Shown here in pieces: positions 5,523 to 22,826 of a stretch of 29,321 bases of DNA. The notes beneath the pieces were generated by a model. That model worked only from the letters and a program-made list of their open reading frames with translations. It had not been told where the DNA came from and ran no database searches. Made by a program: the position numbers and the translations under genes. Within the stretch, counting starts at the first letter, position 1; each line of letters opens with the position of its first letter. Origin of the DNA: an uncultured Pseudomonadota bacterium (GTDB lineage Bacteria; Pseudomonadota; Alphaproteobacteria; RF32; CAG-239). The stretch is from the NCBI GenBank assembly GCA_902495305.1, contig CABUWG010000025.1:1-29321 (forward strand). The letters run 5' to 3'.

Positions 5523-5553
5523 GTTCCGGCTCCATTCTTACTTTAGCTGGCAC

Positions 5554-5583: not shown

Positions 5584-5631
5584 TATGGACATGACAAAAA
5601 TTGGCAGGAATTTTAAATTTCAAAAAAGCAA

Positions 5632-5844
5632 TTACTCATACAGCCCTTGTTCAATGCAAGGTTCTTTTACGAATGGGTTCGGGTTTCCTTGGATTTCCTC
5701 AATACGCTTGGCTCGGGTGCATTCCCATGGTGTGACCAGATATCCTAGCCACGATGGGCCATCGTGACGGGCTATGCTATACCCGATGTTAACAACAAAC
5801 GCAAGGGATTTGTGAATTTTTTCGACAACTCCTGCGCTGGACAT
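5632..5844 (-). CDS. Orphan 70-aa ORF in a locally GC-richer patch; hypothetical, or a gene remnant
   Basis: ORF track only. I saw no convincing Shine-Dalgarno sequence upstream of the ATG and recognised no domain. Confidence 0.25.
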   Translation of the reverse strand: MSSAGVVEKIHKSLAFVVNIGYSIARHDGPSWLGYLVTPWECTRAKRIEEIQGNPNPFVKEPCIEQGLYE

Positions 5845-5988
5845 CTACATTTTACTGGCAGACATCCCCACCGGAATTAGAATTATACAAATAAAAAAAG
5901 GATTACAACCGCACCAAGGCAAACAGAAGTCAAAAAATGGCACAACGAGGCTGTATCATGTCAAAAATTGTCAGAGTTTAGATTTTTT

Positions 5989-6201
5989 CTACCAATCTCG
6001 TTCTTCATCTTCGCGTTCCCAACTCAGATTTCCATGTTCATTTATGGAATTGCGTTGGCCGTCATCGTAATTATCGCGCTCGATCTCTCCGGATCGGATA
6101 TAATCTTCTGCGGTGGGTTCTTGATTAAATGGACTGCGCCTTCTTGGTTGTTCGTTTGATTGATTCATAATTCCAAAAAACAATTCACTAAAAAATCCCA
6201 T
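5989..6201 (-). CDS. Small (70-aa) net-acidic hypothetical protein
   Basis: The track ORF is 5989-6234. The first ATG overlaps the predicted -10 box, so the likely start is the ATG at 6201-6199 (MGFFSELFFG...), preceded by AAAGGAA 7 nt upstream. The C-terminal half is rich in D/E (..RDNYDDGQ..WEREDEERDW). Confidence 0.5.
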   Translation of the reverse strand: MGFFSELFFGIMNQSNEQPRRRSPFNQEPTAEDYIRSGEIERDNYDDGQRNSINEHGNLSWEREDEERDW

Positions 6202-6232
6202 AATAATGTTCCTTTCTTGGTTGTGCAGAGGC

Positions 6233-6261
6233 ATTATATCAGAAAAATTATCTCAAAGCAA
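6233..6261 (-). promoter_or_regulatory. Sigma70-type promoter for the small acidic ORF
   Basis: On the minus strand: TTGCTT (6261-6256), a 17-nt spacer, then TATAAT (6238-6233). Confidence 0.45.
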
Positions 6262-6313
6262 AAAATAAAAAATATGTGATGACAGTTTATGGCATAACAT
6301 TGTAATTTTATAT

Positions 6314-6342
6314 TTGCATTTTTAAATTGAAACGGCTAAAAT
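6314..6342 (+). promoter_or_regulatory. Sigma70-type promoter for druH-druE
   Basis: TTGCAT (6314-6319), a 17-nt spacer, then TAAAAT (6337-6342), about 45 nt upstream of the druH ATG. Confidence 0.4.
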
Positions 6343-6348
6343 ACAAAA

Positions 6349-6370
6349 CGCTCGTTATAAAGAACGAGCG
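6349..6370 (+). promoter_or_regulatory. Perfect 8-bp stem hairpin / inverted repeat in the druH leader
   Basis: CGCTCGTT-ATAAAG-AACGAGCG. It lies immediately after the predicted -10 box and just before the AAGGAC ribosome-binding site. Confidence 0.35.
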
Positions 6371-6385
6371 AATAAGGACTTTTTG

Positions 6386-9300: not shown

Positions 9301-9850
9301 TAAGGTTCTGACCGATACATTTCCCGAAATCGAGGTAACTGTTTACTATTTACTTTTCAAAATAAGCTGTAATTTTACAGACATGATTGAATTTAATTGT
9401 ATAATTCCTCATGTAGGAAAAGCAATTAATTTTACTGAGCAACAACTGAGTGATGAAATTTTTACAAAAAATAAGTATGATGAGAACGATGAAATTGAAG
9501 AATTGTGCTGGATGCAGACATTGCAGGCACAAAACTCATTAGAAGAGGATAATTGGATTCCTTTGCCTTTCCCTCAGCTATACCAAGAAATACAAAGCAT
9601 GTATCCTCAAGAACTATCTAATCTTGCTTCATATTTATTTAAGCTCAATAAGTTTTCGTATTTTATTGAATATGTTGTTAATTTTCCACAGCTTTGTGCT
9701 TTTTATGCTTTCTATAATGCAAAAAGTCGAGATGAAATTCGTAATTTAATGAAATTTTCTATAAAAGATTTTATGAATTTTAACCAAAATTATTTTATAG
9801 AGGTTTATAAAATAGCAATATCAATTATGTTAAGAAATTCAACCAAATGA
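6386..9850 (+). CDS. druH: Large domain-less protein, candidate DruH (Druantia type III)
   Basis: The track ORF starts at TTG 6383. ATG 6386, with AAGGAC upstream, is the more likely start (1154 aa). I recognised no catalytic motif. It ends 7 nt before a ~2000-aa DUF1998 helicase gene, which is the druH-druE arrangement. The coding sequence is very AT-rich. Confidence 0.7.
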   Translation: MLLVENVLHEFLNDFLNKRNLPFPDGRMLYAYQMNQREYLELKEKLNELCQNEELVDLLRNKDFSRCFVLYASEWWKREYSGGVWSWEPIFKTISNDEIKTHQVQVRSRAITEALEYWKYRNSLATGKKFLGAIIANGGLPSKFMQSDKYSSIVRVLRGILRFAGENNANDNELFMRTKEAVKKLPEAIRKDEICELIANLVSTIIKLKRDYELEKETHPVQILNQRCPSWKEQFPLLMEDASVEKMLVGFVEEASRINRNNVRGKIPSVDRIFDFSESDQLKFLFTFPEFDVSAAYFSKFFEISNAEELPQTFYINNLDLKNTTVAIVTMQLGSRKKYKIKKFDNRLDNVLNSVTISLSSADNKIHSKLVTISEKLDINAPFVFIKNDDDTLILKSNGSTYLRENECYIAYKTGIFDLSEFGTLERTVHIGNSELPLIKCTSDIETEQFFVKLNASNPSNNKYCLDGNIISYKAYPHVAYKGVPEVVCYDEDGKRVTIASKYITYYHKGTNLPITDIQNFSGTVDIHCNHGDIERVYTVTIFPADLEIKFDVSDGEYIKFSDMNCIKILPVVDKNVQFTEIAKNEFKFHYLGQKPDKVCFKIYWYSGGTSFIYIPYPCMGVSFFDENGKCIDLFNISILHLMDKKIKIYNNLTKSEKYKLVFKLERANKKGKQVENSRPIFTYDSLTEIKLIDFEDNIKNLLGYSDDENDLIKVSVQLNNKEMGFIRISRYDTYFVLENSTISIPSDQFRIYSNEMLKNTNVVAINLLDPEVPVIPLAQNTDSGIFTGYWNIENLDSSANTYMITSDQKSDISIKPFILCKDKAFESLSDFHKKIIISDIVSVNSGSTITCSSDDLETYLISGLHSYKSELWKDIGDLKQVFATQNISLTALKLWQVLCSNEFLLARLLLFCSSERIIMQKIRDELISVPAIISFATWEAAITEYLQYLREAFAKIPGMESMLKSMISEQFKVLTDTFPEIEVTVYYLLFKISCNFTDMIEFNCIIPHVGKAINFTEQQLSDEIFTKNKYDENDEIEELCWMQTLQAQNSLEEDNWIPLPFPQLYQEIQSMYPQELSNLASYLFKLNKFSYFIEYVVNFPQLCAFYAFYNAKSRDEIRNLMKFSIKDFMNFNQNYFIEVYKIAISIMLRNSTK

Positions 9851-9857
9851 GAAAAAC

Positions 9858-12800
9858 ATGAAGACAAACAGTTACAGCGAACTTCTTAAAATTTTACCTG
9901 TTCAATCAACAGAAGCAATAATGAGCACATTGTCAATTTTGCCTCTAGACTTACGTGAATTCTTGAGAAAGAAATTTTCGGAAGAAGGTGATAAGTTTGT
10001 CGCTGATCCTGTATTTGAGCCTATGTTCAGTTATAAACCAAGCCAACAAACTTTCGGTGAATTAAGTGGAAAGTTGTTGCCTAGGTCATTTGTTAATGCA
10101 TTACATGGGGCTAGTGAGTATAGATTTGATAAAAGCATGTACCCGTATCAACATCAATTAACCTCATGGGAAACATTATTAAATACGAATAATTCATTGG
10201 TTGTATCAAGCGGGACAGGCTCAGGAAAGACGGAATGTTTTATGATTCCTATTATCTCTGATTTAGTCCAACAGGTTGAAAAAACAAATTCTGTGCTTGA
10301 AGGTGTGCAGGCCTTGTTTATTTATCCATTGAATGCTTTAATTCAAAACCAAAGGGAGCGTTTTAGTGAATGGACTAAACCTTATAAGGGGAATATTCGG
10401 TATTGTTTATATAATGGTTTATTGCCACAACAAACGAGGGAATCGGAACAAAAGGAAACTGTGGAAGAAGTTGTTGATAGAGAGCAATTATGGAAATCTC
10501 CATCTCCATTGTTAATTACCAACACCACCATGTTGGAATATATGCTTATTCGCGCAAACGACAAAAGAATAATTGATAAATCAAAAGGAAAATTAAAGTA
10601 TATCGTTTTAGATGAAGCGCATACCTACATCGGTTCGCAAGCGGCAGAATTATCCCTTTTATTAAAAAGGGTTATGGATGCTTTTGAAGTTAAGCCTGAA
10701 CAGGTTAAATTTATAGCAACATCTGCAACCATAGGTGATAATGATGCAAGCACACAATTAAGACGTTTTCTTTCCAGTATTTCGGGTGTAAATGAAGAAA
10801 ACGTTACTGTTGTGTTCGGTAAAAACGAAATAGAGCCATTAGCCTCATCAACAGCCGGCAAATCAATTGATGAAATTGAAAAAATAGAAAACCCGGATGA
10901 AATTATAAAAGAATTACGAAATAATAAATTAGCTTGTTCTTTAAGATCATTTTTTATTTCTTCGAATACTGAACACGGGGTGGCGAGGACCTTAACCGAA
11001 ATATGCAATAATTTTAATTTAACATCTGATCTTGCTTTAAGATGGTTGGATTTACTATCTGTAACACCTGTAAACGAAAAGAGTTTTTTGCCGCTCAGAC
11101 TACATATTTTTCACAAAACATTTCCCGGATTATGGTCCTGCTGTAATCCAAATTGTACTTGCAAGGATAATATCCCGGGGTGGAAATTTGGAAAGATATA
11201 TTTTAAGGAGCAATGTAAATGCGAATGCGGTGCTCCTGTTTTCCGCGTAAAAGCTTGCGCTAACTGTGGCGAACCATTTCTTGAAGCAAAAATTAACGAT
11301 AGCGCAAAGGATGGGAAAAAATACCTGTATCCAACGATGCTTCAAGATATTGATGAGTTTTCTCTTGATGATGACGACAACTATATCAATGATGTTGAAG
11401 CACACACCGTTTGGGTCGAGAATTTCGAAAAAGATAATGACACGGCTTGTTATTTGAATATAGAAGATAGCTCACTATCTTTGGCGAATAGTAATGGAAT
11501 AAGATTAAACGTTTTTGAAGATTATGAGGACATTCATTGCTGTGATGCTCCGGAAGTTGATCAGATAAAATCATTCATTCCTTTGCAAGGTGCTCCATTT
11601 GTTTTGAGCCATGTTTTGCCGACATTGTTAAATTATGCTGAGATAGCAAAAGATTCAGAGTCTAAACCACATGCTGGCCAAAAAATGATTTGTTTTACGG
11701 ACAGCCGTCAAGGCACTGCTAGATTGGCTGTTCAGTTACAACAAAACTCTGAACGTAACTCCTTCAGAAGTATTTTGTTGCACGTGATTGCACATATAGA
11801 GGCTGAAAACAATAAAAACAATAATGCTGATCAGATTAATACATTAAAAGAAGCATATAAAAGTACAAAAATGCCTCAATTACTGGATATGATAAAGCAA
11901 TTAGAAGGACAAAAAGGAAGTTCCTTTGCAAACGAAAACAACGTCATAAGCGATATCTTGAAAGAATTTGACGATAATGACCTCAAATGGATATACAACT
12001 ATTACCGGGACAAAGATTCAATATTTGACACAAATAGAGGTCAAGGTAACCTGATTGAAATATTGTTTGCACGAGAATTAATCAGAAGGCCGAAAAAGGC
12101 AAATAACGTTGAAACATTAGGTTTACTAGCAACTGCTTATGATTTTAGCAAAATTACAAGTGTGCCTGCAAGTATTAGTAAGTATTTCACATGCGATGAT
12201 TGGAAAAATTATCTTAAAATTGTGTTGGACTTTTTTGTGCGTGCCAATGGCTTTGTTGAATATCCGGAGAATTGGGACAAATGGGGGGCTATCAGCAAAA
12301 ATAATGAACCATTGGATTTTGATCACTGGCCTAAAGCTGATAAGAAAAAGAAAAATAGAAACATTGTTAAATTACTGTTTTATGCATTAGATATGGACCA
12401 AACCAATGACTACCATATTGATATAGTAAACGAAATAATGAAAGAAGCTTGGTTAGCTCTAACTTCTGCAACAGGCATTCTGACCCCGTCAGCCAATCAG
12501 ATCTACCGAATGAAAATGGATAAAATAGGATTAAGGCGATTACAAAAAATTTACGTCTGCCCAATAACCAATAAGGCTCTTGATGTAACATTTAAGGGGT
12601 ATTCTCCTTATTTATCTAGAAAAAATAGAGGCGAATCTAAAGAAATAACTCTAGAGAAATGTAAAGAGTATTCGTTTCCAATCTACGATTACAGTAAAGA
12701 AAGTGGAAAATCGTACGATGAATGCGTTTTAATGAGGAGAGAATGGTTAGAAAATAATGATGAAATAAATGAGTTGAAAAAACTGGGTATTTGGAACAAT

Positions 12801-15800
12801 ATTACGAATTCAATTATTTTAGGTAACCGCTACTTCAGAACTGCAGAACATTCGGCTCAACAAACGCACAGCACTTTGAAAAGGTATGAGGATGATTTCA
12901 AAATAGGGAAAATAAATGTTTTGAATTGTTCTACCACAATGGAAATGGGTGTCGATATTGGTGGTATCACTATATCATCTATGAATAACGTACCACCGCA
13001 TCCGGCAAATTATTTGCAAAGAGCCGGACGTGCAGGACGTAGAAGTGAAACAAAGGCCATAAGTTTTACTTTGTGCAAAGATAACTCGCATGATCAATAT
13101 GTTTTTGCGCATCCTAAATGGGCATTTAGCACAAAAATTGCCGCACCTTATGTAGATAAATACAGTTTTATTGTTTTACAACGGCATATAAACTCTCTCT
13201 TGTTAGCATATTATTTTGACAGCATAAAAGGTCAGATAACTGATGCTACTAAGCTGAATATGGAATGGTTTATGCTTCCGGCTGAAAACAGCAGGTTAAT
13301 AAAATTCAAACAGTTCTGTAAGGATGCAATAAGGGTAAATGACCGTATTAGAAAAGCAATCTCTTCGATTATTGAAAATACACACTACGAAGATATAAAC
13401 CTAGACGTTTTTGTAACACAATTGGATGAATTAATTGATAACCTACAAAAGCGGTGGTACGCAGAGTATGATGCAATTCAAGAGCAGAAAGAAAGGGAAA
13501 AAGACCGCAAGATCAGTTTGGCCGCTATTAAAAAAACTGAAGAACGCTTACTTAAGGAATACATTCTCAAAGAGTTAATTGAATACGGCTTATTACCAAG
13601 ATACGGATTTCCAACTAACATCGTCACTTTTGACACGAATAATAGATTTAATTTAGATAAGAAAGTTTCGCAAACAAGAGAAGATAATCTATTTAAGCGA
13701 AGAGAACTTCCATCAAGAGATATTTGTACTGCACTAAGAGAGTATGCGCCTGGATGTGATGTTGTTATTGATGGTTTGGTTTATAAATCCGCCGGTATAA
13801 CACTAAATTGGCACATTCCTGCCTCTGATTCAGAAGTAAAAGAAATCCAATCAATGCGCTATATATGGAGATGCCACAAATGCGGTGCAAGTGGTACTTC
13901 AACAAGTCTTTGTGATGTAAAATGTGATGTTTGCGGATCTGAAATTGATACGAGAGATATGCAGAAGTATATTCAGCCGGCAGGATTTTCTGTTGATTTT
14001 AATGCGGCTGTAAATAACAACGTATCGGTTCAACGTTATATAAATATCTGTGAACCTTTAGTGACGGCTCATAATACTCTCAATTCCTATTTAGGATTAC
14101 CTTACGTAAAATATAAAAATGATAAAGAAGGTAGTGTAATCCACTATTCAAACGGCGGCGGTGAAGGATATATTTTGTGCCTCGAATGCGGTAGAATGGT
14201 TGCAAACAACAAGAAAAACCGGGAAGAATTCAAAAAAAGACATTACCGTTTGCGTAGTGGCGTATACCCCAATAGTCAAACAGGAAATACTTATAAAGTT
14301 GAATGCCAACATTCGCCTTATTCAATTATAGAAAATATTAATCTCGGCGTAGAAATTAAAACAGACCTTTTGGAGCTAATTCTATCTGATTTAGATGGCA
14401 ACGTCATTGATGACAGGACGTTGGCATATTCACTTGCGGTGGCCATACGTAGCGGTATTGCTAAATACATGAATGTTGAAACAGAAGAAATCGGATGTAT
14501 CGCTAAACAAATCCGGGTTAATGGAACAAATAAAAAAGGGTTTGCGATAGAGTTATTTGATAAAAATGCTTCCGGATATTGCTCTTCAAATGATATTATA
14601 AAAAATTTGAATATCATATTTAAGTATGCCCAAAATATTCTAAAATGTGATTGCGCACAATCTTGCAATAAATGTATTTTACAGAATGACACAAAATACA
14701 ACTACAGATATTTGGATAGAAAACTTGCGCTGGAGTTCTTAACAGATGAGTGGATTGCTAAAAATACTTTGCCGCAGGATATGAAAATCTTCGGAGATGG
14801 CACTCTTGTTGCATCTGCAAGTATTGAAAGTTTGATTGAGGATACTCCAAATTTACAAAAGTTATACTTAATTATCCCGGAAAATATGGAAAATGAAGAT
14901 TTTTCAAACTCTCCAATTTACAGGCTTGTCAACAGATATAATGCATTAAACACTCAGATAATACTTTGCGTGAATGAAAAAACACTGGGAGATGATGTAA
15001 AGAAAACCATTTCTTTGCTTTCCAATTTAAGCAATGTCTCTGTGAAAGCGATACCAGAAAAGCTAAATGATAAAATAATGGCAATTGTTTGGGATGGTTT
15101 CAAGTATTATTCATATGCATCCTTTGATGAAAATGTAAGACAATTAAACCAGTATTGGGGAAGTAATATAAACACATCAATATTATCAGGCTATATTGAT
15201 ATCAACGGCCTAAAATTTAATGATGTTAAATTAGAGACTGTTGAAAATATAAGTTACGATAAAATGTTCAATATTTCGTCAGAGGTTAACGGCCCAGGAT
15301 ATGGGTTCGGTAATAGATTGTTATCCATTTTGGCATCAAGTTTGGATAAAGGAATAAGTTCACCAATAGTAAAAATTGAATATAAGGATAGATATCTAAA
15401 AAATCCTTTGGCCTCAGGTTTATTTTACAGTTTTATAAAAGAACTTAAAGTTAGGTACGAAAAATTATGGAATTGTGCATCTATAACTTTGGAAACAGCC
15501 GAAACTACAGAAACCAACAAACAATATCCAACAATGTTTTATCATGACTGGGATGATGTGGATGCTAGAAATGAGGTATTAACTGCATTGTTTGATAAAA
15601 TTGGATTGAAATTTCAATTAAAAGAGAAAAACAAAAAATATCTCGAGCATAACAGAATAATGACAATTGAACTGGAAAATGGCGAAAAAATTAATTTAAT
15701 ACTAGATCAAGGCTTTTCTTACTGGAGATGTCTTGCATATTGTTACGCTGAAAACATCTTTCCGTTTGATGCAGACATTGATGAACAGGTGGCAAAAATC

Positions 15801-15869
15801 GGACAATGGTTACCGAATGTATCCGGTGATACTTATCCAACCAGAATATTTTACACTAAATCGAAATAG
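9858..15869 (+). CDS. druE: DEAH-box SF2 helicase with DUF1998 (MrfA-type Zn-binding) module and long C-terminal extension; DruE-like
   Basis: 2003-aa ORF. The helicase motifs are SSGTGSGKTE (I), LDEAHTY (II), SATIG (III) and QRAGRAGRR (VI). The Cys clusters are CCNPNCTC..CKCECG..CANCG, CHKCG..CDVKCDVCG, CLECG and CDCAQSCNKC, as expected for the DUF1998 zinc module. Its size and its pairing with the upstream giant ORF match DruE. Confidence 0.85.
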   Translation: MKTNSYSELLKILPVQSTEAIMSTLSILPLDLREFLRKKFSEEGDKFVADPVFEPMFSYKPSQQTFGELSGKLLPRSFVNALHGASEYRFDKSMYPYQHQLTSWETLLNTNNSLVVSSGTGSGKTECFMIPIISDLVQQVEKTNSVLEGVQALFIYPLNALIQNQRERFSEWTKPYKGNIRYCLYNGLLPQQTRESEQKETVEEVVDREQLWKSPSPLLITNTTMLEYMLIRANDKRIIDKSKGKLKYIVLDEAHTYIGSQAAELSLLLKRVMDAFEVKPEQVKFIATSATIGDNDASTQLRRFLSSISGVNEENVTVVFGKNEIEPLASSTAGKSIDEIEKIENPDEIIKELRNNKLACSLRSFFISSNTEHGVARTLTEICNNFNLTSDLALRWLDLLSVTPVNEKSFLPLRLHIFHKTFPGLWSCCNPNCTCKDNIPGWKFGKIYFKEQCKCECGAPVFRVKACANCGEPFLEAKINDSAKDGKKYLYPTMLQDIDEFSLDDDDNYINDVEAHTVWVENFEKDNDTACYLNIEDSSLSLANSNGIRLNVFEDYEDIHCCDAPEVDQIKSFIPLQGAPFVLSHVLPTLLNYAEIAKDSESKPHAGQKMICFTDSRQGTARLAVQLQQNSERNSFRSILLHVIAHIEAENNKNNNADQINTLKEAYKSTKMPQLLDMIKQLEGQKGSSFANENNVISDILKEFDDNDLKWIYNYYRDKDSIFDTNRGQGNLIEILFARELIRRPKKANNVETLGLLATAYDFSKITSVPASISKYFTCDDWKNYLKIVLDFFVRANGFVEYPENWDKWGAISKNNEPLDFDHWPKADKKKKNRNIVKLLFYALDMDQTNDYHIDIVNEIMKEAWLALTSATGILTPSANQIYRMKMDKIGLRRLQKIYVCPITNKALDVTFKGYSPYLSRKNRGESKEITLEKCKEYSFPIYDYSKESGKSYDECVLMRREWLENNDEINELKKLGIWNNITNSIILGNRYFRTAEHSAQQTHSTLKRYEDDFKIGKINVLNCSTTMEMGVDIGGITISSMNNVPPHPANYLQRAGRAGRRSETKAISFTLCKDNSHDQYVFAHPKWAFSTKIAAPYVDKYSFIVLQRHINSLLLAYYFDSIKGQITDATKLNMEWFMLPAENSRLIKFKQFCKDAIRVNDRIRKAISSIIENTHYEDINLDVFVTQLDELIDNLQKRWYAEYDAIQEQKEREKDRKISLAAIKKTEERLLKEYILKELIEYGLLPRYGFPTNIVTFDTNNRFNLDKKVSQTREDNLFKRRELPSRDICTALREYAPGCDVVIDGLVYKSAGITLNWHIPASDSEVKEIQSMRYIWRCHKCGASGTSTSLCDVKCDVCGSEIDTRDMQKYIQPAGFSVDFNAAVNNNVSVQRYINICEPLVTAHNTLNSYLGLPYVKYKNDKEGSVIHYSNGGGEGYILCLECGRMVANNKKNREEFKKRHYRLRSGVYPNSQTGNTYKVECQHSPYSIIENINLGVEIKTDLLELILSDLDGNVIDDRTLAYSLAVAIRSGIAKYMNVETEEIGCIAKQIRVNGTNKKGFAIELFDKNASGYCSSNDIIKNLNIIFKYAQNILKCDCAQSCNKCILQNDTKYNYRYLDRKLALEFLTDEWIAKNTLPQDMKIFGDGTLVASASIESLIEDTPNLQKLYLIIPENMENEDFSNSPIYRLVNRYNALNTQIILCVNEKTLGDDVKKTISLLSNLSNVSVKAIPEKLNDKIMAIVWDGFKYYSYASFDENVRQLNQYWGSNINTSILSGYIDINGLKFNDVKLETVENISYDKMFNISSEVNGPGYGFGNRLLSILASSLDKGISSPIVKIEYKDRYLKNPLASGLFYSFIKELKVRYEKLWNCASITLETAETTETNKQYPTMFYHDWDDVDARNEVLTALFDKIGLKFQLKEKNKKYLEHNRIMTIELENGEKINLILDQGFSYWRCLAYCYAENIFPFDADIDEQVAKIGQWLPNVSGDTYPTRIFYTKSK

Positions 15870-16078
15870 ATACTGTAAAAGTTATGGTATATCAGATAGT
15901 TATATTAGAGGTTCGCGACAAAAGAGTGGGTGTCCACGCTGGGTGGAAAATTAGCCCACTAGGTAAAAATATGGTTTGTAAAAATTGAGAAAGCCCTAGT
16001 GTTTTCAGCGTTATATCGCTATAATTCATCTAAATGAAAACGAGGCTGTATCAAAGTAGGGATTTTCCCTAGATGTCG

Positions 16079-16132
16079 CCGACCACTAAAAAAGGGTGCA
16101 CGAAGTGTGCCTTTTTTTGTGGCTTCGGGAAG
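16079..16132 (+). repeat. Copy 1 of a ~52-nt imperfect palindromic element
   Basis: CCGACCAC-T-AAAAAAGGGTGCAC-GAA-GTGTGCCTTTTTTT-GTGG-CT-TCGG. It folds into one long hairpin with two G-U pairs and a GAA loop, and carries a T-run. A near-identical copy lies 176 nt downstream. Confidence 0.8.
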
Positions 16133-16254
16133 CTGATGAGAAACCACGAGAAAGTGGGTTCGACTACCAGCGAAAGGCGGATGAAAAGACGCCGGTGAGC
16201 GAAGCGAATGAGCGCCTGTGCAACTCAAGCGGAGCGCAGAGTAATCCCGCTGCC

Positions 16255-16308
16255 CCGACCACTAAAAAAGGGTGCACGAAGTGTGCCCTTTTTTGTGGCT
16301 TCGGGAGC
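16255..16308 (+). repeat. Copy 2 of the ~52-nt imperfect palindromic element
   Basis: CCGACCACTAAAAAAGGGTGCACGAAGTGTGCCCTTTTTTGTGGCTTCGGGAGC. It differs from copy 1 by one T->C change in the 3' arm of the stem and by a missing A near the 3' end. Confidence 0.8.
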
Positions 16309-16546
16309 CGTCTCCGGCGGGTGAGGCTTCAGTTTTTGCTCACTGCTTCAGAAGCCGCGTTGCCGTGATGGTGTATGTGAGAGATAGGACTTCGAAAAAT
16401 GGGCGAAAAACGTCAGTGTGCCGCGAAGAGTACGACCAGAGGCGCAGTGACAGCATACAGTTTAATTTATGCCGTAAAAATCCTGCATTTACATAATCTT
16501 TGTTCTGTTCGTTGCAGAAAGCAATTCAGCAGCCGGTTAATTTTTA

Positions 16547-17203
16547 TTGCTTGTTTTTTTCATCCGGTATATCTTATTTTTATCTTTATTCAGAAAGGGC
16601 AGGATTTTGCAGGGGTATAATTTAAGCCGCAACAAGAGTTTAAGGCTTCCGAAGATTGTAGAAAACGAAGCCGGCGTTCTTAATTCCACAGATGATTTGT
16701 TTGCAACACGTCAGGCTTCCGCTTTGGCCGCTGACAGGAAATTTCCGAAAAAAAACGAGGACGGGGAGGAAAATGGCCATGACGCCGAGTTGGAACGGGT
16801 TTTGAAACTGCCTGAAACCGCGAGCGAGCTGGTGGTCATAACCAAGGCAAAAAAACTCGGGGCTTATACGATTGCGATTACGGCAAAATCGCCGGCAAAG
16901 TTCCGCGGCGTGTTTGTTAACCGGATGCAAAATTTTTGCCTCGACGCCGTACAAAATATGCTGAATGCCAATTTTATCCGCGCGGAAGACGAGGAAAGCA
17001 AAAAACTGCGGGAGAAGTTTCAGTCTGATGCGATTATCTGCTTGAAAATGCTGGCATATATTGCCATGGTGGCAGAGAATGCCGGTTGTATTTTGAAAAG
17101 ACAATATAAACAGATTGCATTGCAGGCCGGCGAGACGATTAATCTGGCTCTGGCCTGGAAAAAGAGCGATGATGAAAAATGGAGGAGCAAAAAAGAGATT
17201 TGA
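16547..17203 (+). CDS. avd: DGR accessory variability determinant (Avd-like four-helix-bundle protein); true start uncertain
   Basis: The C-terminal ~130 aa (ELVVITKAKKLGAYTIAITAKSPAKFRGVFVNRMQNFCLDAVQNMLNANF...CLKMLAYIAMVAENAGCILKRQYKQIALQAGETINLALAWKKSDDEK) fit the Avd / 23S-rRNA-IVS four-helix-bundle pattern. The gene sits directly upstream of the TR and RT. The track ORF begins at a TTG. A TATAAT at 16616-16621 lies inside it, and there is no in-frame ATG before the conserved part. Confidence 0.75.
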   Translation: MLVFFIRYILFLSLFRKGRILQGYNLSRNKSLRLPKIVENEAGVLNSTDDLFATRQASALAADRKFPKKNEDGEENGHDAELERVLKLPETASELVVITKAKKLGAYTIAITAKSPAKFRGVFVNRMQNFCLDAVQNMLNANFIRAEDEESKKLREKFQSDAIICLKMLAYIAMVAENAGCILKRQYKQIALQAGETINLALAWKKSDDEKWRSKKEI

Positions 17204-17246
17204 AACCGAAAGGTTTTAAATGAGGGAAAGCTTGTAATTGCCTTAT

Positions 17247-17356
17247 TTGGTCGGCGTCCGCTAATAATAACGGGAATGTTCGCACCGTGAATAATGACGG
17301 AGATAAGAACTATAATAATCCCCAAAAACGAAAGGCCGCCGTTCGGCCCGATTTGC
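17247..17356 (+). repeat. DGR template repeat (TR)
   Basis: A 110-nt match to 18888-18997 at a constant offset of 1641. I counted 15 mismatches by hand, and all are at TR adenines. Read in the VR frame, the TR encodes Asn-rich AAY codons (NNNGNVRTVNNDGDKNYNNPQKRKAAVRPD). Confidence 0.9.
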
Positions 17357-17421
17357 TTTTGAAGGGAAACATTAAAATTGCGTCCGGCAAAGCCGCAAGT
17401 TTCCGAAAAACAAGCCTGTTT

Positions 17422-17443
17422 ACGGTTTTTATGCAAAAACCGT
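17422..17443 (+). other. Perfect 9-bp hairpin in the TR-RT spacer region
   Basis: ACGGTTTTT-ATGC-AAAAACCGT, located in the part of a DGR RNA that normally carries the structured spacer (Sp) element. Confidence 0.4.
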
Positions 17444-17550
17444 CCGTGCTGAAAGCAAAGGAAGTTTTCTCTTTTCCGGCCGCTGCGGGAAAATGTTCCA
17501 TGCGGAGGAAGAAACAAAAACAGCAAATGTTTTATGAAATACCACATACA

Positions 17551-17578
17551 TTGACGCAGTTTTGTTTTAATGTATTAT
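17551..17578 (+). promoter_or_regulatory. Possible internal sigma70-type promoter upstream of the RT gene
   Basis: TTGACG (17551-17556), a 16-nt spacer, then TATTAT (17573-17578). GGAGA lies upstream of the RT ATG at 17616. Confidence 0.3.
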
Positions 17579-17615
17579 CGGGTATTTCTTTTTTTATCCG
17601 GAGATATGACAGAGC

Positions 17616-18683
17616 ATGAACCTGAACAAGATATTTTCATTTGAAAATCTGATGGAAGCCCACAAACTGTGCCGGAGAAGCAAACAGCACAAACGCGGCG
17701 CCATCATGTTTGAGATTGAACTCGGACGTAACATTGCCAAACTGGCAGATGATTTGGCAAAGAAGAAATACAAACTCGGAAAATACAGGCAATTTACCAT
17801 TTTTGATCCCAAGAAACGCCTGATTGAGGCTTTGCCGTATAAAGACAGGGTTGTTCTGATGTGTTTTTGCAAATATGCGCTTGAGCCGCGTCTGGATTGC
17901 CGGCTGATTTTTGACAATGCAGCGTCCAGAAAAGGCAAAGGGCCGGAATTTGCCATTGAACGCCTCAGCGGTTTTGTCCGCAGGCTTTGCTGTCAGAAGC
18001 CGGAAGAAGACATTTACTTTCTGAAATGCGACATTGCAAAATATTTTCAGAACATCAATCACAAGATATTGTTGGAAAAACTGCGGCGGTGCGGTTTTTC
18101 TGACGATGAAATGTGGCTTATGGAACAGGTTATCCGTTCGCACGGCGAAACCGGCGTTCCGCTCGGAAACCAGACAAGCCAGTGGTTTGCCCTGCTCTAT
18201 CTGGACGAGATTGACCGACTGGCAAAAGAACGCCTGCGCGCCCCGTTTTATATCCGCTATATGGATGATTTTGTCCTGTTAAGCAAAGACAAGGCTTTTT
18301 TGCAGCGCTGCCGAAATGAAATCGGTCTGGCCTGCCGCGAAAATCTGAAATTGCAGCTGAACGCCAAAACGCAAATCGGAAAGCTGAAAGACGGGCTGGA
18401 TTTTCTCGGATATAATTTTAAGCTCACGGTTACCGGCAAGCTTCTTAAAAGCCTGCGCGCTTCTGCCCGCCGGCGGCAACGGCATTATATTAAGATGATT
18501 GCCCGTTATTATTTGCAGGATGTTCTTGACGATGAATACCTGAATGTCCGTTTTAATGCCTTTAAGGCGCATATGAAAGGTACATCTGACTGGAAATTTG
18601 TACGTGACCGGTTAAACAGCCTGAAAAAGAAGAAGCGGCTTATGAAAAAAGCCAAAGATAAAAAATCCTTGCCCGCTTGCTGA
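17616..18683 (+). CDS. DGR reverse transcriptase
   Basis: 355-aa ORF. It has the catalytic YMDD box (YIRYMDDFVLL) and the DGR-type motif LGNQTSQ (the [ILV]GxxxSQ signature). It is flanked by Avd and the TR upstream and by the VR-bearing gene downstream. Confidence 0.95.
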   Translation: MNLNKIFSFENLMEAHKLCRRSKQHKRGAIMFEIELGRNIAKLADDLAKKKYKLGKYRQFTIFDPKKRLIEALPYKDRVVLMCFCKYALEPRLDCRLIFDNAASRKGKGPEFAIERLSGFVRRLCCQKPEEDIYFLKCDIAKYFQNINHKILLEKLRRCGFSDDEMWLMEQVIRSHGETGVPLGNQTSQWFALLYLDEIDRLAKERLRAPFYIRYMDDFVLLSKDKAFLQRCRNEIGLACRENLKLQLNAKTQIGKLKDGLDFLGYNFKLTVTGKLLKSLRASARRRQRHYIKMIARYYLQDVLDDEYLNVRFNAFKAHMKGTSDWKFVRDRLNSLKKKKRLMKKAKDKKSLPAC

Positions 18684-18723
18684 AAGTGTAGTATTATTAG
18701 TGGTAACTAATGGAGGAACTCTA

Positions 18724-20697
18724 ATGAATACAACATTATTGACAGAAGATCAAATCTGGGGAAATCAGGCTCTGGATGTTATGAAGAAGTATGGAACCAG
18801 AACGGCATTGACCGATTTGGCCATCGTATTGGGCGGTTTAATGGGGCGCTCGACCACAACCTCCGAGGGTGAACGTTCCGGTTATCATTGGTCGGCGTCC
18901 GCTGATGGTAGCGGGGATGTTCGCACCGTGAATCTTGACGGAGATAAGTACTCTGGTAATCCCCAAGGACGAGAGGCCGCCGTTCGGCCCGCTTTGCCTC
19001 CATCCGAGACATCTAAAATCCGTCCGAACGCAGTGAGGACGCTGAGATTGCCCGAAGGGCAATCGCTCGAAATTTGCGAATTCGGGGCCTATCCCCAAGA
19101 CATTGTTTCGCAGAAAATTTCGCAAAATCTGGAAAAATCTTACCAAAAAAGAAATCTTAAAACAACAGGAAAGTCTTATACTTTCGATGATGCCGGCCTG
19201 ACAGATTACAGTTCTGCTTTTAAGCCTAAAACTTATCAGGAATATGAGGATTCGTCTTCCGGTAAAAGATATGTCCGTGTTGAGGGCAAACCTGCCGACG
19301 AGGATTCGATTCTGTCTGACGGAATACGCGTTCAGAAAGGCGAAGCCTATTGGCTTGAGGTCAAGCCGATTGAATGGCTGAAAGATCCGTCCGGCGTCTG
19401 GGTGGCGAAAAAAGCCCTTTTTTCCGGCGTGCAATTTGATTCCGACAGCGATTATGACGGCAATTTTGCCCAAACCGACATGAAGCGGTATCTGGACCGC
19501 TATTTCTCAAAAGAAATGCAAGCATCCCGCGATTATTCCGTAAGCCGCAGCCGCAATGTCGACGTTTCCGAAGAAAAAAGCTTTACGCCCAAACCGCCCT
19601 CGGCCAGACAGAAAAAATACGGCATTCAGGTTGTGGACGAACCGATGACGGTTAAAGACCAGATTGACTTTTATGTGCAGAACGGCATGTCCTTCATGCT
19701 GCACGGACCATCCGGCGTCGGAAAGACCGCGAGGGTGGAAGCCATTGATCCGGATTTGACTGCCGTGCCGTTGTGGAACGGCGTCTTGCCCGAAGATGTG
19801 GTCGGCAAGGTGCGTTATCCGGACGGAAAAACCGGCTTGCCCGATGAAAACAAGTCCGGCGGAGAATGGATTGCACCGGACTGGTATGTGGAGTTGTGCA
19901 AAAAATGCGAAGCCGAACCGGACAAAAACCATGTTTTGTTCATTGACGAGGTTACCAATGCCCGTCCGACGACGCAAAGTCTGATTTTTCATATAACCCT
20001 GAAAAAATCCATCAGCTCCAGCAAGGGCAAGCTGCCGGACAACGCCGTTGTCGTACTGGCCGGAAACAGCAAAGAAGAATCCGGCGCGGCGTATAATATG
20101 CCGGAGCCTTTATTCCGACGGATGTGCGGCCATATTTATCTGGAAGCGAATGTGCCGGAATGGCTGGAATGGGCCAGCGAAAAAAGCCGTAAGCATCCCG
20201 AAGATCCGGAACGTCTGAATATTCATCCGCTGGTGTCTTCTTTTGTCGGGACATACGGGCATCAGGTTTTCTACTCTTCTTATGACGAGGAAAATCCGCA
20301 GCAATGGGCAATGGATCCGCGCGGCTGGGAACAGGTTTCGGACATTATTTATGACAACAAAGGCATTATCCGGAGAGAACTGCTGGAAAGCAAAATGGGA
20401 AAAGAACTGGCGGCCAATCTGCTGGCTTATGCCAAAAATCCGCCGCTTTCGCTCGAAGAAGTGATTAACGGCGAATATTCCGAGCATGACATTCCGTCCG
20501 GCAATGATGCCCGTTTGGCGCTGACACTGAGCCTTCGGCACGTGGATGACCGGCGGGTCGGGAAAGTCAGGGATTTTATCCGAGAAAATCTCGGACGGGA
20601 AAATGAAGCCATTTTTGATTCCTTTTGGATTGGCAAAGACGATGAAAGGGCTTTGCAGATTGCCCGTCAGAAACAACTCAGAAATGCAGGGAGGTAA
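18724..20697 (+). CDS. DGR target protein: N-terminal hypervariable ligand-binding-type domain fused to AAA+ (AAA_5/MoxR-like) ATPase
   Basis: The track ORF starts at GTG 18700. ATG 18724, with GGAGGA at 18712-18717, is the likely start (657 aa). The VR encodes residues ~56-91 (WSASADGSGDVRTVNLDGDKYSGNPQGREAAVRPAL). Walker A is LHGPSGVGKT, Walker B is VLFIDEV, sensor 1 is VVVLAGN and the Arg-finger region is PLFRR. Confidence 0.9.
   Translation: MNTTLLTEDQIWGNQALDVMKKYGTRTALTDLAIVLGGLMGRSTTTSEGERSGYHWSASADGSGDVRTVNLDGDKYSGNPQGREAAVRPALPPSETSKIRPNAVRTLRLPEGQSLEICEFGAYPQDIVSQKISQNLEKSYQKRNLKTTGKSYTFDDAGLTDYSSAFKPKTYQEYEDSSSGKRYVRVEGKPADEDSILSDGIRVQKGEAYWLEVKPIEWLKDPSGVWVAKKALFSGVQFDSDSDYDGNFAQTDMKRYLDRYFSKEMQASRDYSVSRSRNVDVSEEKSFTPKPPSARQKKYGIQVVDEPMTVKDQIDFYVQNGMSFMLHGPSGVGKTARVEAIDPDLTAVPLWNGVLPEDVVGKVRYPDGKTGLPDENKSGGEWIAPDWYVELCKKCEAEPDKNHVLFIDEVTNARPTTQSLIFHITLKKSISSSKGKLPDNAVVVLAGNSKEESGAAYNMPEPLFRRMCGHIYLEANVPEWLEWASEKSRKHPEDPERLNIHPLVSSFVGTYGHQVFYSSYDEENPQQWAMDPRGWEQVSDIIYDNKGIIRRELLESKMGKELAANLLAYAKNPPLSLEEVINGEYSEHDIPSGNDARLALTLSLRHVDDRRVGKVRDFIRENLGRENEAIFDSFWIGKDDERALQIARQKQLRNAGR
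18888..18997 (+). repeat. DGR variable repeat (VR)
   Basis: It is the counterpart of the TR at 17247-17356. The substitutions fall only opposite TR adenines (A->G, C or T), mostly at first and second positions of AAY codons. The 3' end shares the GC-rich segment GGCCGCCGTTCGGCCCG. Confidence 0.9.
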
Positions 20698-20699
20698 GC

Positions 20700-21083
20700 A
20701 TGAATAACAAGAAAAAAATGCTGTTTGAGCAGGTATTGGACAATAATCCCCTGCATCCGGTCATTTTGGCCGGCTGTGAAGATCTCTCCCTGCCCTCCTG
20801 CGTCTTTATGCCGGCGGATATTGCCGAGCGGGAGCTGTTTATTCCGTCTGACTGGAGCAAAATGCTTGATTTTGAGGCGCAAAACGGCAAGGCTTATCTT
20901 TTGATTGAGGGACTGGACAGGCTGGAGCCGGCGCAGCAAAACAAATTTTGCATGCTTTTGAAAAACCGGCGGGCCGGAAACTACAAACTGCCCGACAATG
21001 TCAGGATTGTTATTCCGGTTGTCGACAAATCGGGGCTCTCCGGCGACATCCTGTCTCTTTCTCTGCTTTGGGGCGTTGAATAA
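20700..21083 (+). CDS. Small (127-aa) protein resembling a Walker-A-less AAA+ core fragment
   Basis: GGGAGG lies upstream, and the ATG is 2 nt after the preceding stop. The segment AYLLIEGLDRLEPAQQNKFCMLLKNRRAGNYKLPDNVRIVIPV resembles the Walker B to sensor 1 stretch of AAA_5 proteins. No GxxGxGK[ST] P-loop is present. Confidence 0.6.
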   Translation: MNNKKKMLFEQVLDNNPLHPVILAGCEDLSLPSCVFMPADIAERELFIPSDWSKMLDFEAQNGKAYLLIEGLDRLEPAQQNKFCMLLKNRRAGNYKLPDNVRIVIPVVDKSGLSGDILSLSLLWGVE

Positions 21084-22612
21084 TGCCGGCAGACAATAAT
21101 GACATTGATTATATCAGGGAACGGGTTCTCCGGAAATTTCCGCTGCTCGGCGTGACGATGTCTGCCCTGAACACCGTGGCTGATGACAATATTGGCACGG
21201 CGGCGACTGACGGGCATACCGTTTATTATTCTCCAAAGTTTTTTGCCCCGCTTTCCGATGACGAAAAAACTTTTATTTATGCGCATGAGGTGATGCATGT
21301 GGCTTTTAACCATATTCTGCGCAGCAAAGGCAAGAAGCAGCGTCTGTGGAATACGGCTACGGATGCCGTTATTAACCAGATTCTCCAAAACGAAGAACTG
21401 CCTATGGTTGACGGCGGCGTAGACATGGCGGAAGCCGTCAACAAATCTGCCGAAGAAATGTATGAAAAGCTCCTGAAAGAACAAGAGGAAAAGAAACAAG
21501 AAAACAAACAGCAAAAGCAAGGAAACGATCATTCCGAGCAACAGCCCGACAGCGGCCGGCAACAGCAAAATACGCCCCAGCCCCAGGAGAATAATCAGCA
21601 GGAGCAGGAAAACGCAGAAGGGGAAGAAAGCGAACAGGCCGGACATGACAATCATGAGATTTGGAAAGAAGCTGTTGAGCGGGAAGAAAAACAAAGACAG
21701 CAGCAAGAAGACAGCCGGAAACAAAAAGAGAATTCTCCGTCGCCCAAGCAAGAGAAATCGGGACAAAACCTTTTGGACAAGCTGAAAGACTTGTTTAAAA
21801 AGCAGAATAAGCCCGCAAACCAAAACGGGGCTGAAAATAAAGAAACCCGCCAAGGGAGCCCTGACGGCGCCGACAGCCCCCGTTCCAAAGGGAATGAGAG
21901 CGTTTATGAAAAGCGGTTTGCCGAAGATAACCGGCAGGAGCGCAAAAGACAAGCCGAACAGATTCGCAAGGCTTTGCAACAGCACAAAAATGAAGTTCTT
22001 AAGGCGCAATCCGAAGAATATTCCTTCGGTAACGTCGGCGAGGCCAAGGCGGTTACCGACTGGAAGAAGCTTTTAAAGAAGACTATCGAAAAGGAAGAAG
22101 ACCGCTGGTCTTACCGCCGTTCCGGCGCCGACAACGACTATATGGCCCGCGTGGAAGAACTGGAAGAAGAAAACCGCTCGGAAACGGAAGTCATGCTGGA
22201 CGTCAGCGGTTCAGTCGACGAAGACATGCTGAAAGAATTTTTACGGCAGCTGAAGCCTATTTTAAAAACCTCAAAACTGAAAGTCGGGTGTTTTGACCAT
22301 CGGATTTTTGGTTTTAAGGAGATAAAAAACAGCCGCGACATTGACAATTTCAGGGTGCCGGGCGGCGGAGGGACGAATATTGATCAGGCCGTACGGGCTT
22401 TTTCCAAGAAAAAAGACGTCAACAAGATTGTCTTTACGGACGGGTATTCCGATGATATGCCGCGGCAGGATCTGAAAAATACAAATGTCATCTGGCTTAT
22501 TTATGACAACAAGAATTTTCATCCGGTTTGCGGAAAAGTGATTTATGTCGACCGCTCCAAACTCGGGCAGGATTATATGAAAAATGTCTATTTTGCCAGA
22601 GGCGGCAGATAA
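21083..22612 (+). CDS. DUF2201-type protein: N-terminal HExxH putative metallopeptidase domain, long E/K/Q-rich linker, C-terminal vWA-like domain
   Basis: 509-aa ORF. The TAATG start/stop overlaps the upstream gene. The N-terminal region reads TDGHTVYYSPKFF...YAHEVMHVAFNHILR...NTATDAVINQ, with an HExxH motif. The C-terminal region reads VMLDVSGSV (a DxSxS MIDAS-like motif) ...PGGGGTNIDQA...IVFTDGYSD. Confidence 0.85.
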   Translation: MPADNNDIDYIRERVLRKFPLLGVTMSALNTVADDNIGTAATDGHTVYYSPKFFAPLSDDEKTFIYAHEVMHVAFNHILRSKGKKQRLWNTATDAVINQILQNEELPMVDGGVDMAEAVNKSAEEMYEKLLKEQEEKKQENKQQKQGNDHSEQQPDSGRQQQNTPQPQENNQQEQENAEGEESEQAGHDNHEIWKEAVEREEKQRQQQEDSRKQKENSPSPKQEKSGQNLLDKLKDLFKKQNKPANQNGAENKETRQGSPDGADSPRSKGNESVYEKRFAEDNRQERKRQAEQIRKALQQHKNEVLKAQSEEYSFGNVGEAKAVTDWKKLLKKTIEKEEDRWSYRRSGADNDYMARVEELEEENRSETEVMLDVSGSVDEDMLKEFLRQLKPILKTSKLKVGCFDHRIFGFKEIKNSRDIDNFRVPGGGGTNIDQAVRAFSKKKDVNKIVFTDGYSDDMPRQDLKNTNVIWLIYDNKNFHPVCGKVIYVDRSKLGQDYMKNVYFARGGR

Positions 22613-22749: not shown

Positions 22750-22826
22750 GCGCCCTTAGCTCAGCTGGATAGAGCAACAGCCTTCTAAGCTGTGGGTCAG
22801 ACGTTCGAATCGTCTAGGGCGCGCCA
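22750..22826 (+). tRNA. tRNA-Arg (anticodon UCU), CCA encoded
   Basis: I folded the cloverleaf by hand. The acceptor stem is GCGCCCT/AGGGCGC, the D arm is GCTC-AGCTGGATA-GAGC, the anticodon stem is ACAGC/GCTGT with loop CT-TCT-AA, and the T arm is AGACG-TTCGAAT-CGTCT. The discriminator is G, followed by CCA. Confidence 0.9.

Follow-up and report, generated by a model that had tools for sequence, protein, structure and literature searches.

A diversity-generating retroelement adjoining a MoxR-class ATPase operon in an uncultured gut alphaproteobacterium

What is a diversity-generating retroelement (DGR) doing beside the gene of a predicted intracellular ATPase, and is the element genuine? The question is raised by a 29,321-nt stretch of DNA (contig CABUWG010000025.1, assembly GCA_902495305.1) from an uncultured gut alphaproteobacterium of lineage RF32; CAG-239, the whole of which is referred to here as the window. 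A template repeat (TR) and a variable repeat (VR), together with the genes that flank them, make up a real and intact DGR in this window, and very probably this chromosomal element lies beside, and acts to diversify, the leading gene of a conserved operon coding for a MoxR ATPase, a small protein, and a VWA-zincin protein. It is unusual in that what it would rewrite is the front end of a predicted intracellular MoxR ATPase, not the tail of a surface or phage protein.

Template and variable repeats and the retroelement machinery

The element has the following parts.

16607..17203, + strand: avd, with a likely TTG start and 198 aa, made up of an N-terminal extension of ~60 aa and a four-helix-bundle Avd domain
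17247..17356, + strand: template repeat, 110 nt with 34 adenines; the TRs of sister strains differ by 1 to 7 nt
17334..17356, + strand: IMH*-like 3' end of the TR (IMH, initiation of mutagenic homing), GC-rich GGCCGCCGTTCGGCCCG followed by ATTTGC, with a fixed A at 17351
17348..17596, + strand: conserved structured spacer RNA between the TR and the reverse transcriptase (RT) gene, with helices and then a U-run, and with covariation
17616..18683, + strand: DGR RT, 355 aa, uninterrupted, with LGNQTSQ at 183 and YMDD at 215
18888..18997, + strand: variable repeat, residues 55 to 92 of the target, hypervariable among homologues and strain alleles
18975..18997, + strand: IMH-like 3' end of the VR, with GGCCGCCGTTCGGCCCG and then CTTTGC, coding for residues AAVRPAL
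19046..19064, no strand assigned: inverted repeat GATTGCCC-GAA-GGGCAATC, 49 nt 3' of the VR end, found in L001 and L004

The TR and VR form a gapless 110-nt repeat at an offset of 1641 nt, and a script count finds 15 mismatches, all 15 of them at TR adenines (10 A>G, three A>C, and two A>T) in a TR composed of 34 A, 27 G, 26 C, and 23 T. An earlier note on this DNA, made from the letters alone, had described the same ungapped alignment, the same 15 adenine-only mismatches among about 34 adenines, and no other difference inside the repeat; these counts are exact, and the check that it proposed, a pairwise alignment with mismatches tabulated by TR base, places none at a non-adenine base. The pairing is reproduced by MAFFT and by a repeat finder (family D1, 86% identity), for which it is the sole long repeat of the window. 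The hypergeometric probability that 15 of 15 mismatches fall on 34 adenines among 110 positions is 1.6e-9. An adenine-tolerant scan of both strands reveals no second VR, the runner-up site having 14 non-A mismatches in 60 nt. Read in the frame of the VR, the TR is as rich in AAY (Asn) codons as the note had said (9 of 36 codons) and encodes ..WSASANNNGNVRTVNNDGDKNYNNPQKRKAAVRPDL..; it also contains the Lys codons AAG, AAA, and AAG at residues 75, 82, and 84, respectively, which mutation can turn into stop codons.

The 3'-most mismatch, A17351 in the TR versus C18992 in the VR, which makes residue 90 Asp or Ala, respectively, is constant in all five distinct same-species alleles and also in the related loci L003 and L011, and since it is identical in every allele it marks the boundary between IMH and IMH* and is not a diversified site. 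The reading of all 15 positions as diversified is therefore trimmed to 14 diversified sites in the window and one fixed difference. The two repeats share the GC-rich 17-mer GGCCGCCGTTCGGCCCG, and divergence is complete after 18997; in the TR copy only, the IMH*-like segment comprises a hairpin and then a T-rich tract. As judged from sequence, these segments are good candidates for the arrangement by which DGRs are recognized, with a GC-rich IMH at the VR end and a nonidentical IMH* in the TR. The inverted repeat at 19046-19064 is a candidate only, for a hairpin or cruciform that might assist homing; in L002 a different stem with its pairing kept (CCTGCCC-GAA-GGGCAGG) occupies the same place, and loci at a greater distance either lack the repeat or have a different one.

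The avd gene, the TR, and the RT gene are all present and co-oriented, as first noted, and the RT has both of its motifs; its reading frame, for which a frameshift had been raised as a possible flaw, is open throughout its 355 codons. The RT matches RVT_1 (E 2.7e-17) and phrog_1423 (E 1.4e-90), and among solved structures it comes closest to 8ub7_A (E 1.4e-31), which has 328 aa and is named 'Reverse transcriptase', with a group II intron maturase (E 1.7e-11) 20 orders of magnitude behind; 8ub7_A is an entry that we take to be the DGR RT of Bordetella phage BPP-1. The longest avd ORF (open reading frame) begins at 16547, a less likely start than the TTG at 16607 because gene callers give 198 aa in sister strains. 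Avd matches phrog_3206 ('Avd protein of DGR', E 1.8e-13), and all of the 10 Avd orthologues have a match to PF22296 (bAvd; best E 4.6e-6); the window Avd itself matches NF033474 under the cut-off (E 0.0019) and does not reach the curated NCBIfam and Pfam cut-offs, and an Avd profile finds no match among PDB sequences. The N-terminal extension of ~60 residues is conserved across relatives.

The TR-RT spacer (259 nt) is more conserved than its surroundings, with a mean column identity of 78% in an alignment of 10 loci, versus BLASTN identities of mostly 65 to 75% for the flanking genes against the same loci. RNAalifold predicts 66 base pairs in this alignment, 24 of them with compensatory changes; 96.3% of cells are paired, compared to 39 to 53% with slid partners, and the covariation score is reached by 0 of 500 shuffles. 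The helices are formed by 17348-17359 with 17452-17461 (thus joining the 3' end of the TR to the spacer), 17378-17382 with 17394-17398, 17422-17430 with 17435-17443, 17472-17483 with 17502-17512, 17517-17522 with 17528-17533, 17536-17543 with 17581-17588, and 17546-17557 with 17564-17575. The final hairpin (17536-17588) is terminator-like and is followed by a U-run immediately before the RT start. By analogy, this RNA may be the counterpart of the cDNA-priming spacer RNA of the Bordetella phage system. The only Rfam match above its gathering score in the window is a tRNA, and a permissive rerun over 15800-17700 adds no more than two, both of which fall short of the threshold (E 0.058 and 0.16). 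A -35/-10-like site at 17551-17578 overlaps the terminal spacer hairpin and U-run. In the consensus scan, promoter-like sites are not enriched (7, versus 8.1 in shuffles) and terminator-like sites number 18, versus 10.5 in shuffles (standard deviation 3.4); individual sites of both kinds are taken as annotations only.

The gene order is avd-TR-RT-target, with the target 3' of the RT, and the avd-TR-RT core corresponds to Architecture B, the commonest, accounting for 68% of 372 DGRs (PMC5758913). If the element works as modeled for the Bordetella phage, from which the steps are borrowed, then avd, the TR, and the structured spacer would be transcribed, and an RT-Avd complex would copy the TR RNA into cDNA, misincorporating opposite adenines. 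The mutagenized cDNA would then replace VR 18888-18997, with the direction set at the GC-rich IMH at 18975-18997. Such a replacement would rewrite 19 codons, 18 in residues 61 to 84 and the 19th a near-silent GGA at 73, for some 7e17 possible protein variants.

The target protein and its operon

The gene that carries the VR is the first of three that are nearly contiguous.

18724..20697, + strand: target gene, 657 aa, with an ATG at 18724 and a GGAGG ribosome-binding site
18724..19518, + strand: coding region of the N-terminal module, 265 residues, carrying the VR
20700..21083, + strand: small ORF of 127 aa, conserved, whose first base is 3 nt past the target stop and whose end overlaps the start of the VWA/zincin gene
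21083..22612, + strand: VWA/zincin partner, 509 aa, in which DUF2201_N is joined by a low-complexity acidic linker to a DUF2201 VWA domain

The target consists of an N-terminal variable module followed by an AAA+ ATPase of the MoxR class and by a C-terminal helical domain, and the VR sits at the gene's 5' end, in residues 55 to 92 of 657. The earlier note rightly put the target downstream of the RT and overlooked both the N-terminal position of the VR and the MoxR-class identity. The AAA+ domain (residues ~300 to 500) has a Walker A motif, GPSGVGKT, at 328 and a Walker B motif, VLFIDE, at 404. In the full-length model (pLDDT 81.6, pTM 0.45), the top Foldseek matches of the ATPase part are CbbQ2 (6l1q, E 1.6e-9) and NorQ (9qh4 and 9qh7), with E values from 1.6e-9 to 1e-7 and target-normalized TM scores of 0.57 to 0.66, and the NorQ structures matched include NorQ bound to the NorD VWA domain. 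A target profile matches 2r44 in PDB (E 5e-4), and Pfam AAA_5 scores 19.2 bits, under its cut-off of 22. By motifs and fold, the ATPase belongs to the MoxR class. No signal peptide or long hydrophobic stretch is seen in the target by inspection, and it is therefore predicted to be cytoplasmic.

The VWA/zincin protein has intact HEVMH (zincin, HExxH) and DVSGS (MIDAS) motifs and matches PF13203 (E 2.3e-30) and PF09967 (E 1.7e-12). The 127-aa protein between it and the ATPase is conserved in most related loci and has no family match; it may be a degenerate AAA+ fragment, with a weak match to phrog_1297 (E 0.088). This near-contiguous trio, with just 2 nt between the target and the small ORF, is kept in nearly all alphaproteobacterial loci, although the N-terminal module is replaced in some relatives of the ATPase, as by ankyrin repeats in P0111. 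Two of the proteins have phage homologues, the ATPase in phrog_1297 ('ATPase', E 7e-37) and the VWA/zincin protein in phrog_1314 (E 6.6e-68), and those of the ATPase cover only residues ~280 to 647, never the variable module. The label of phrog_1314, 'HNH endonuclease', looks wrong for a DUF2201 zincin-VWA protein.

The N-terminal module is not matched by any Pfam, NCBIfam, PHROG, or PADLOC model. The AlphaFold2 model of residues 1 to 265 is compact and mostly beta (pLDDT 90.9, pTM 0.83). The module belongs to a family of 1470 cluster representatives (50%-identity clusters) at E<=0.001, in which it occurs alone, in tandem, and fused to ankyrin, DUF4116, leucine-rich-repeat-like, and ATPase domains; among the 150 proteins listed, lengths range from 157 to 1005 residues, and some of the modules are tandem or internal. 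A profile search with the N-terminal 105 residues finds same-family fragments only and no new architectures.

A clue to its kinship comes from two module relatives that match Pfam DUF6273, one of which, P0242, scores above gathering (26.3 bits, versus 23.5). Both module copies of P0242 align to window residues 1 to 265 (E 7e-38 and 4e-36), and its DUF6273 match straddles their junction, taking in the end of one copy and the start of the next. Carried over to the window, residues ~5 to 92, including the VR, would correspond to the C-terminal half of DUF6273 and residues ~205 to 265 to its N-terminal half, so that the module would be, by transitive homology, a distant and circularly permuted relative of DUF6273 with a beta-rich insert of ~110 residues.

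Several results count against this relationship. PF19789 (DUF6273) is not matched by the window protein or by any of 29 N-terminal homologues (0 of 29), and constructs in which residues ~200 to 268 are joined to 1 to 97, made for the window and eight homologues, recover DUF6273 in a scan against Pfam only once and weakly (E 0.019), and not for the window. Foldseek with the module model finds no neighbor (best E 0.18 in PDB and 0.076 in BFVD, with TM ~0.1) and no C-type lectin among its results in either database. Because the direct and permuted-construct tests failed, P0242 is the single protein from which the permutation is argued, and because Foldseek gave no neighbor, the fold is assigned through transitive homology. 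If the assignment is correct, a large family that has no Pfam model is tied, through circular permutation, to a domain of phage DGR targets.

Strain alleles, broken alleles, and genomic neighborhood

A scan with one genome per species yields 78 loci that encode relatives of the target, mostly in metagenome-assembled genomes (MAGs) of uncultured gut and rumen Alphaproteobacteria, with the rest in Clostridia. Fourteen of these species-level loci have the same order of avd, TR, RT, target, small ORF, and VWA gene, and a targeted adenine-tolerant scan finds a TR/VR pair in all 14, with 0 to 2 non-A mismatches per 70-nt window in 13 of them and 7 in L004, which bears indels; RT-less loci have no TR, and the background is 7 to 17 non-A mismatches. 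The cassette is compact (~6 kb), and the 14 related cassettes provide natural variants for comparison.

Within the species (a cluster with at least 90% protein identity), 10 to 18 of 40 residues differ in the VR, versus 26 to 42 of 617 outside it. Four further strain alleles have TRs that are 1 to 7 nt from that of the window, and when each VR is compared with its own TR, 23 of 24, 20 of 24, 24 of 26, and 10 of 10 mismatches are at A; for the five distinct same-species alleles, including that of the window, the count is 92 of 99. The most informative is L086, with a TR only 1 nt from the window TR and a VR that has a different set of 10 changes, all at adenine. Near-equal TRs with different VRs point to retrohoming since these strains diverged. 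Taken together, and within what genome sequences can show, the shared cassettes and the TR/VR pattern among strains demonstrate a functional lineage and not a chance repeat.

P0046, a homologue whose locus has no RT, appears on a list of 42 contigs that come from different samples (24 of the 42 examined) and acts as a natural non-diversifying control. The same module and operon are also seen in L009, L010, L012, L015, L021, and L079 to L081, with no RT or TR within 7 to 10 kb. Relatives that have this operon and lack the RT indicate that the DGR either was added to a pre-existing operon or has been lost repeatedly.

Placing the VR at the N terminus has a cost that is visible in natural alleles. 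The window allele is intact, with its stop-prone TR Lys codons at residues 75, 82, and 84. Assemblies commonly contain N-terminal fragments of 68 to 104 residues with their ends within the VR, of which some represent 33 to 54 member sequences, and matching N-truncated remainders of 549 to 592 residues are called in the same clusters. In-frame stops interrupt the VR in 5 of the 14 cassette loci and frameshifts in 1 of 14; broken alleles are seen in the VR regions of L002 (7168-7265), L003 (7170-7270), L013, L014, L028, and L004 and among the proteins P0163 to P0221. The stops fall at TR codons AAG, AAA, or TAA, and the other breaks are 1-nt indels. The TRs of L002 and L003 have TAA at a conserved codon that is TGG (Trp) in related species, and those of L005 and L026 have TAA elsewhere, so that a stop triplet is written into the template itself, as tolerated damage or as a useful switch. 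An alternative genetic code was considered for these stops and rejected, since code 11 leaves all of the other long ORFs open and since the positions of the stops coincide with TR codons AAG, AAA, or TAA.

The broken alleles could be real null alleles made by the DGR; many of them could instead be assembly artifacts of a heterogeneous region in a mixed population, a point that counts against the reading. Because the VR is 5'-located and the TR contains AAG and AAA codons, some retrohoming events are expected to remove nearly the whole protein, as the alleles with stops and frameshifts illustrate.

The region directly 5' of the cassette (window 759-15869) is a low-GC (~33%) defense island with two systems and a regulator.

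759-2231: HsdM, type I restriction-modification
2218-4587: HsdR, type I restriction-modification
4572-5522: WYL regulator
6383-9850: DruH, Druantia type III
9858-15869: DruE, Druantia type III

The island is strain specific. It is missing in L004 and in sister strains, several of which have a SurA-like gene directly 5' of avd, and L080 has other defense-like genes at the same upstream site, which thus appears to be a variable site for defense genes. Between DruE and avd is a 52-nt direct repeat, 98% identical (16079-16130 and 16255-16306), each copy of which has a terminator-like hairpin, GCACGAAGTGTGC, and then a T-run. The 183 nt at 16079-16261 are 98.9% identical to L004, versus ~87% in the flanks, a contrast that may mean that the boundary of the island is occupied by a small element, either mobile or under strong conservation; the best Rfam match overlapping the repeat region (16079-16306) has E 0.16, under its gathering score. 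Downstream, a tRNA-Arg(TCT) at 22750-22826 lies 138 nt 3' of the VWA gene. It is not an island boundary here, because synteny with L004 continues through it to an ABC transporter. The downstream flank is cellular (tRNA-Arg, ABC transporter, and LicD), and no phage structural, integrase, or lysis genes are found in the window.

Possible roles and comparison with known systems

What the operon does with a diversified front end can be proposed only tentatively. The module may bind ligands as the head of a cytoplasmic MoxR hexamer, and this hexamer may serve, together with its VWA-zincin partner, as a hypervariable intracellular sensor in biological conflict or defense, a role that is plausible while falling somewhat short of probable. 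It is suggested by the swapping of modules among ATPase relatives, by a large module family with many fusion partners, by the likeness to DUF6273, and by published proposals of antigen sensors, and the variable defense-gene site upstream lends it weak support.

Other observations pull the opposite way. None of the three operon proteins (target, small protein, and VWA protein) is matched by a PADLOC defense model; no killing effector is recognized, and no VMAP protein either, the VMAP model not being among those used. The closest solved relatives of the ATPase, CbbQ and NorQ, are housekeeping enzyme activases. Furthermore, the place of the cassette is shared by sister strains and by L004 (87.6% nucleotide identity), and in this it behaves like a core gene and not like a mobile defense island.

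These points lead to the alternative that the MoxR/VWA operon does housekeeping work, as a chaperone or in maturation, in the manner of NorQ-NorD or CbbQ-CbbO, with a head that tunes the recognition of substrates or adaptors and is no sensor of invaders. The match to NorQ with the NorD VWA domain, as well as to CbbQ2, fits this, as do the conserved chromosomal place and the want of defense-model matches. Massive, targeted hypervariability is nevertheless hard to square with a cellular substrate that stays the same, the operon has no linked gene for a client enzyme, the head is exchanged for ankyrin repeats or other modules in relatives, both the ATPase (phrog_1297) and the VWA protein (phrog_1314) have phage homologues, and null alleles are frequent and evidently tolerated. 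On balance, a housekeeping role is rather unlikely.

A more elaborate form of the sensor proposal gives the DGR two roles in an intracellular immune sensor, here that of a unicellular gut bacterium. It would diversify MoxR heads that recognize invader proteins and activate the VWA-zincin protein, and it would also toggle the sensor off and on at high frequency, purging self-reactive or costly variants. The toggling is suggested by the position of the VR at the 5' end and by the stop-prone TR codons (TAA in some species); as a whole, this dual role is speculative and unlikely.

It is quite improbable that the element is a fossil, formerly active and with a VR that is now a static, diverged copy in this strain. 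A single static VR allele is what the window itself presents, ongoing diversification in this strain being supported indirectly, by assembled strain alleles and not by reads, and the stop- or frameshift-broken VRs of several relatives could be signs of decay. Decay is difficult to reconcile with ORFs and catalytic motifs that are all intact, with a spacer RNA under purifying selection that shows compensatory changes, and with L086, whose VR has a different 10 adenine changes although its TR is 1 nt away.

An origin as a prophage or phage-derived cassette, with a receptor-binding protein such as the tentaclins or Mtd-like proteins as the target, is very improbable. It would agree with the use of DUF6273 in DGR targets that are phage receptor-binding proteins, with the tentaclin VR that is also near the N terminus (PMC10743442), and with the existence of phage homologues for both the ATPase gene and the VWA gene. 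Phage genes, whether structural, integrase, or lysis, are missing from the window, and on this ground a prophage origin is rejected; the target, moreover, lacks a signal peptide and Ig-like or tail-fiber domains and is fused to an AAA+ ATPase, the phage homologues match its residues ~280 to 647 only, and the flanks are cellular, with tRNA-Arg, ABC transporter, and LicD downstream and the SurA-like gene upstream in sister strains. Finally, an ordinary duplication or gene-conversion tract with mismatches on adenines by chance, for which nothing speaks beyond the bare existence of a two-copy repeat, has a negligible chance of being correct, given a P of 1.6e-9, the same pattern in 14 other loci and four sister-strain alleles, and the adjoining RT and Avd.

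The intact DGR is in several respects like the prototype, that of phage BPP-1 (avd-TR-brt, with mtd as the target). Both have Avd and an RT, adenine-specific TR/VR differences, an AAY-rich TR, a GC-rich IMH with a nonidentical IMH*, and a structured spacer RNA after the TR. In BPP-1 the target is upstream and the VR forms the last ~50 residues of the C-type lectin domain of a phage tail fiber, whereas in the window the target is downstream, the VR is at residues 55 to 92 of 657 in a predicted cytoplasmic ATPase, and Lys codons of the TR can mutate to stops. Because the VR is N-terminal, the IMH in the window must be coding sequence. The canonical C-terminal position is thus not the one found here. 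The VR is at the end of the ORF for 87% of VRs (PMC11661182), and only 3 N-terminal VRs are among the 372 DGRs of the 2018 catalogue (Wu et al. 2018, PMC5758913). A class of this catalogue from the candidate phyla radiation (CPR), UVR4, likewise has an AAA_5/Midasin-type ATPase in the DGR target (PMC5758913), although its NTPase motif is upstream of the VR, it belongs to another phylum, and its VR fold is unclassified; in the window, the VR is upstream of the ATPase.

NorQ-NorD and CbbQ-CbbO, which include the closest solved ATPases, similarly pair an AAA+ hexamer of this class with a VWA/MIDAS protein, but they have no variable module and no DGR, their clients are nitric oxide reductase and Rubisco, and their VWA partners are without DUF2201_N.

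DUF6273 is described as a DGR-varied binding domain resembling C-type lectin domains (PMC10743442). It occurs in DGR targets of gut phages, namely tentaclins and Mtd-like proteins (PMC10743442) and targets of Faecalibacterium prophages (PMC11792537) and of Toutatisvirus (bioRxiv 10.1101/2024.10.15.618418). The VR segment of the window, W.AS..G.V..V..G....R..VRPAL, appears to match the VR-bearing C-terminal end of these targets (by transitive comparison through P0242), and as in tentaclins the domain is at the protein N terminus and the habitat is the gut. In contrast, the order within the module is VR half, beta-rich insert of ~110 residues, and other half, unlike that of Pfam DUF6273. The phage targets are receptor-binding proteins with Ig-like domains, while the window module belongs to a cellular operon and is followed, in one fused protein, by an AAA+ ATPase; it is accompanied neither by Ig or Fn3 domains nor by genes of phages.

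The nearest precedent in composition is the group of DGR-MoxR-vWA (VMAP) conflict systems that Kaur et al. 2020 (PMC7159879) predicted, that Dore et al. 2024 (PMC10907252) went on to study, and for which a role as hypervariable antigen sensors was proposed (PMC7159879; PMC10907252). These, too, combine a DGR, a MoxR-class ATPase, and a vWA protein, with a diversified domain that is predicted to be cytoplasmic. The VMAP ternary arrangement calls for a MoxR ATPase, a vWA protein, and a VMAP protein with a peptidase, cyclase, or adaptor domain. Of these three genes, the window has the MoxR and vWA genes, and its third gene codes for the 127-aa protein without a family match. The variable domain of VMAP systems is of the FGS/C-type lectin kind and forms the C terminus, in most cases that of the vWA protein, under a 'strict syntax' that puts any other domains on its N-terminal side, whereas the diversified module of the window is N-terminal, fused to the MoxR ATPase itself, and the vWA partner is a DUF2201 zincin-VWA protein. 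VMAP systems also have VMAP, peptidase/caspase/trypsin, or TIR components, none of which was found in the window, and their hosts are multicellular bacteria, cyanobacteria, actinobacteria, and Chromatiales, compared to the gut and rumen Alphaproteobacteria MAGs of the present kind.

Links of DGRs to MoxR and vWA proteins, and DUF6273 as a DGR target, have thus already been published. The literature searched holds no mention of DUF2201 with DGRs or MoxR and no DUF6273-like N-terminal head on a MoxR ATPase as a DGR target, so that, within that literature, their combination and the N-terminal placement are new. The link of DGRs to MoxR-vWA systems, for which the role of 'antigen sensor' was recently proposed, is extended here from multicellular cyanobacteria and Chromatiales to gut and rumen Alphaproteobacteria, and the architecture breaks the published C-terminal rule for the variable domain by placing it as the N-terminal head of the ATPase.

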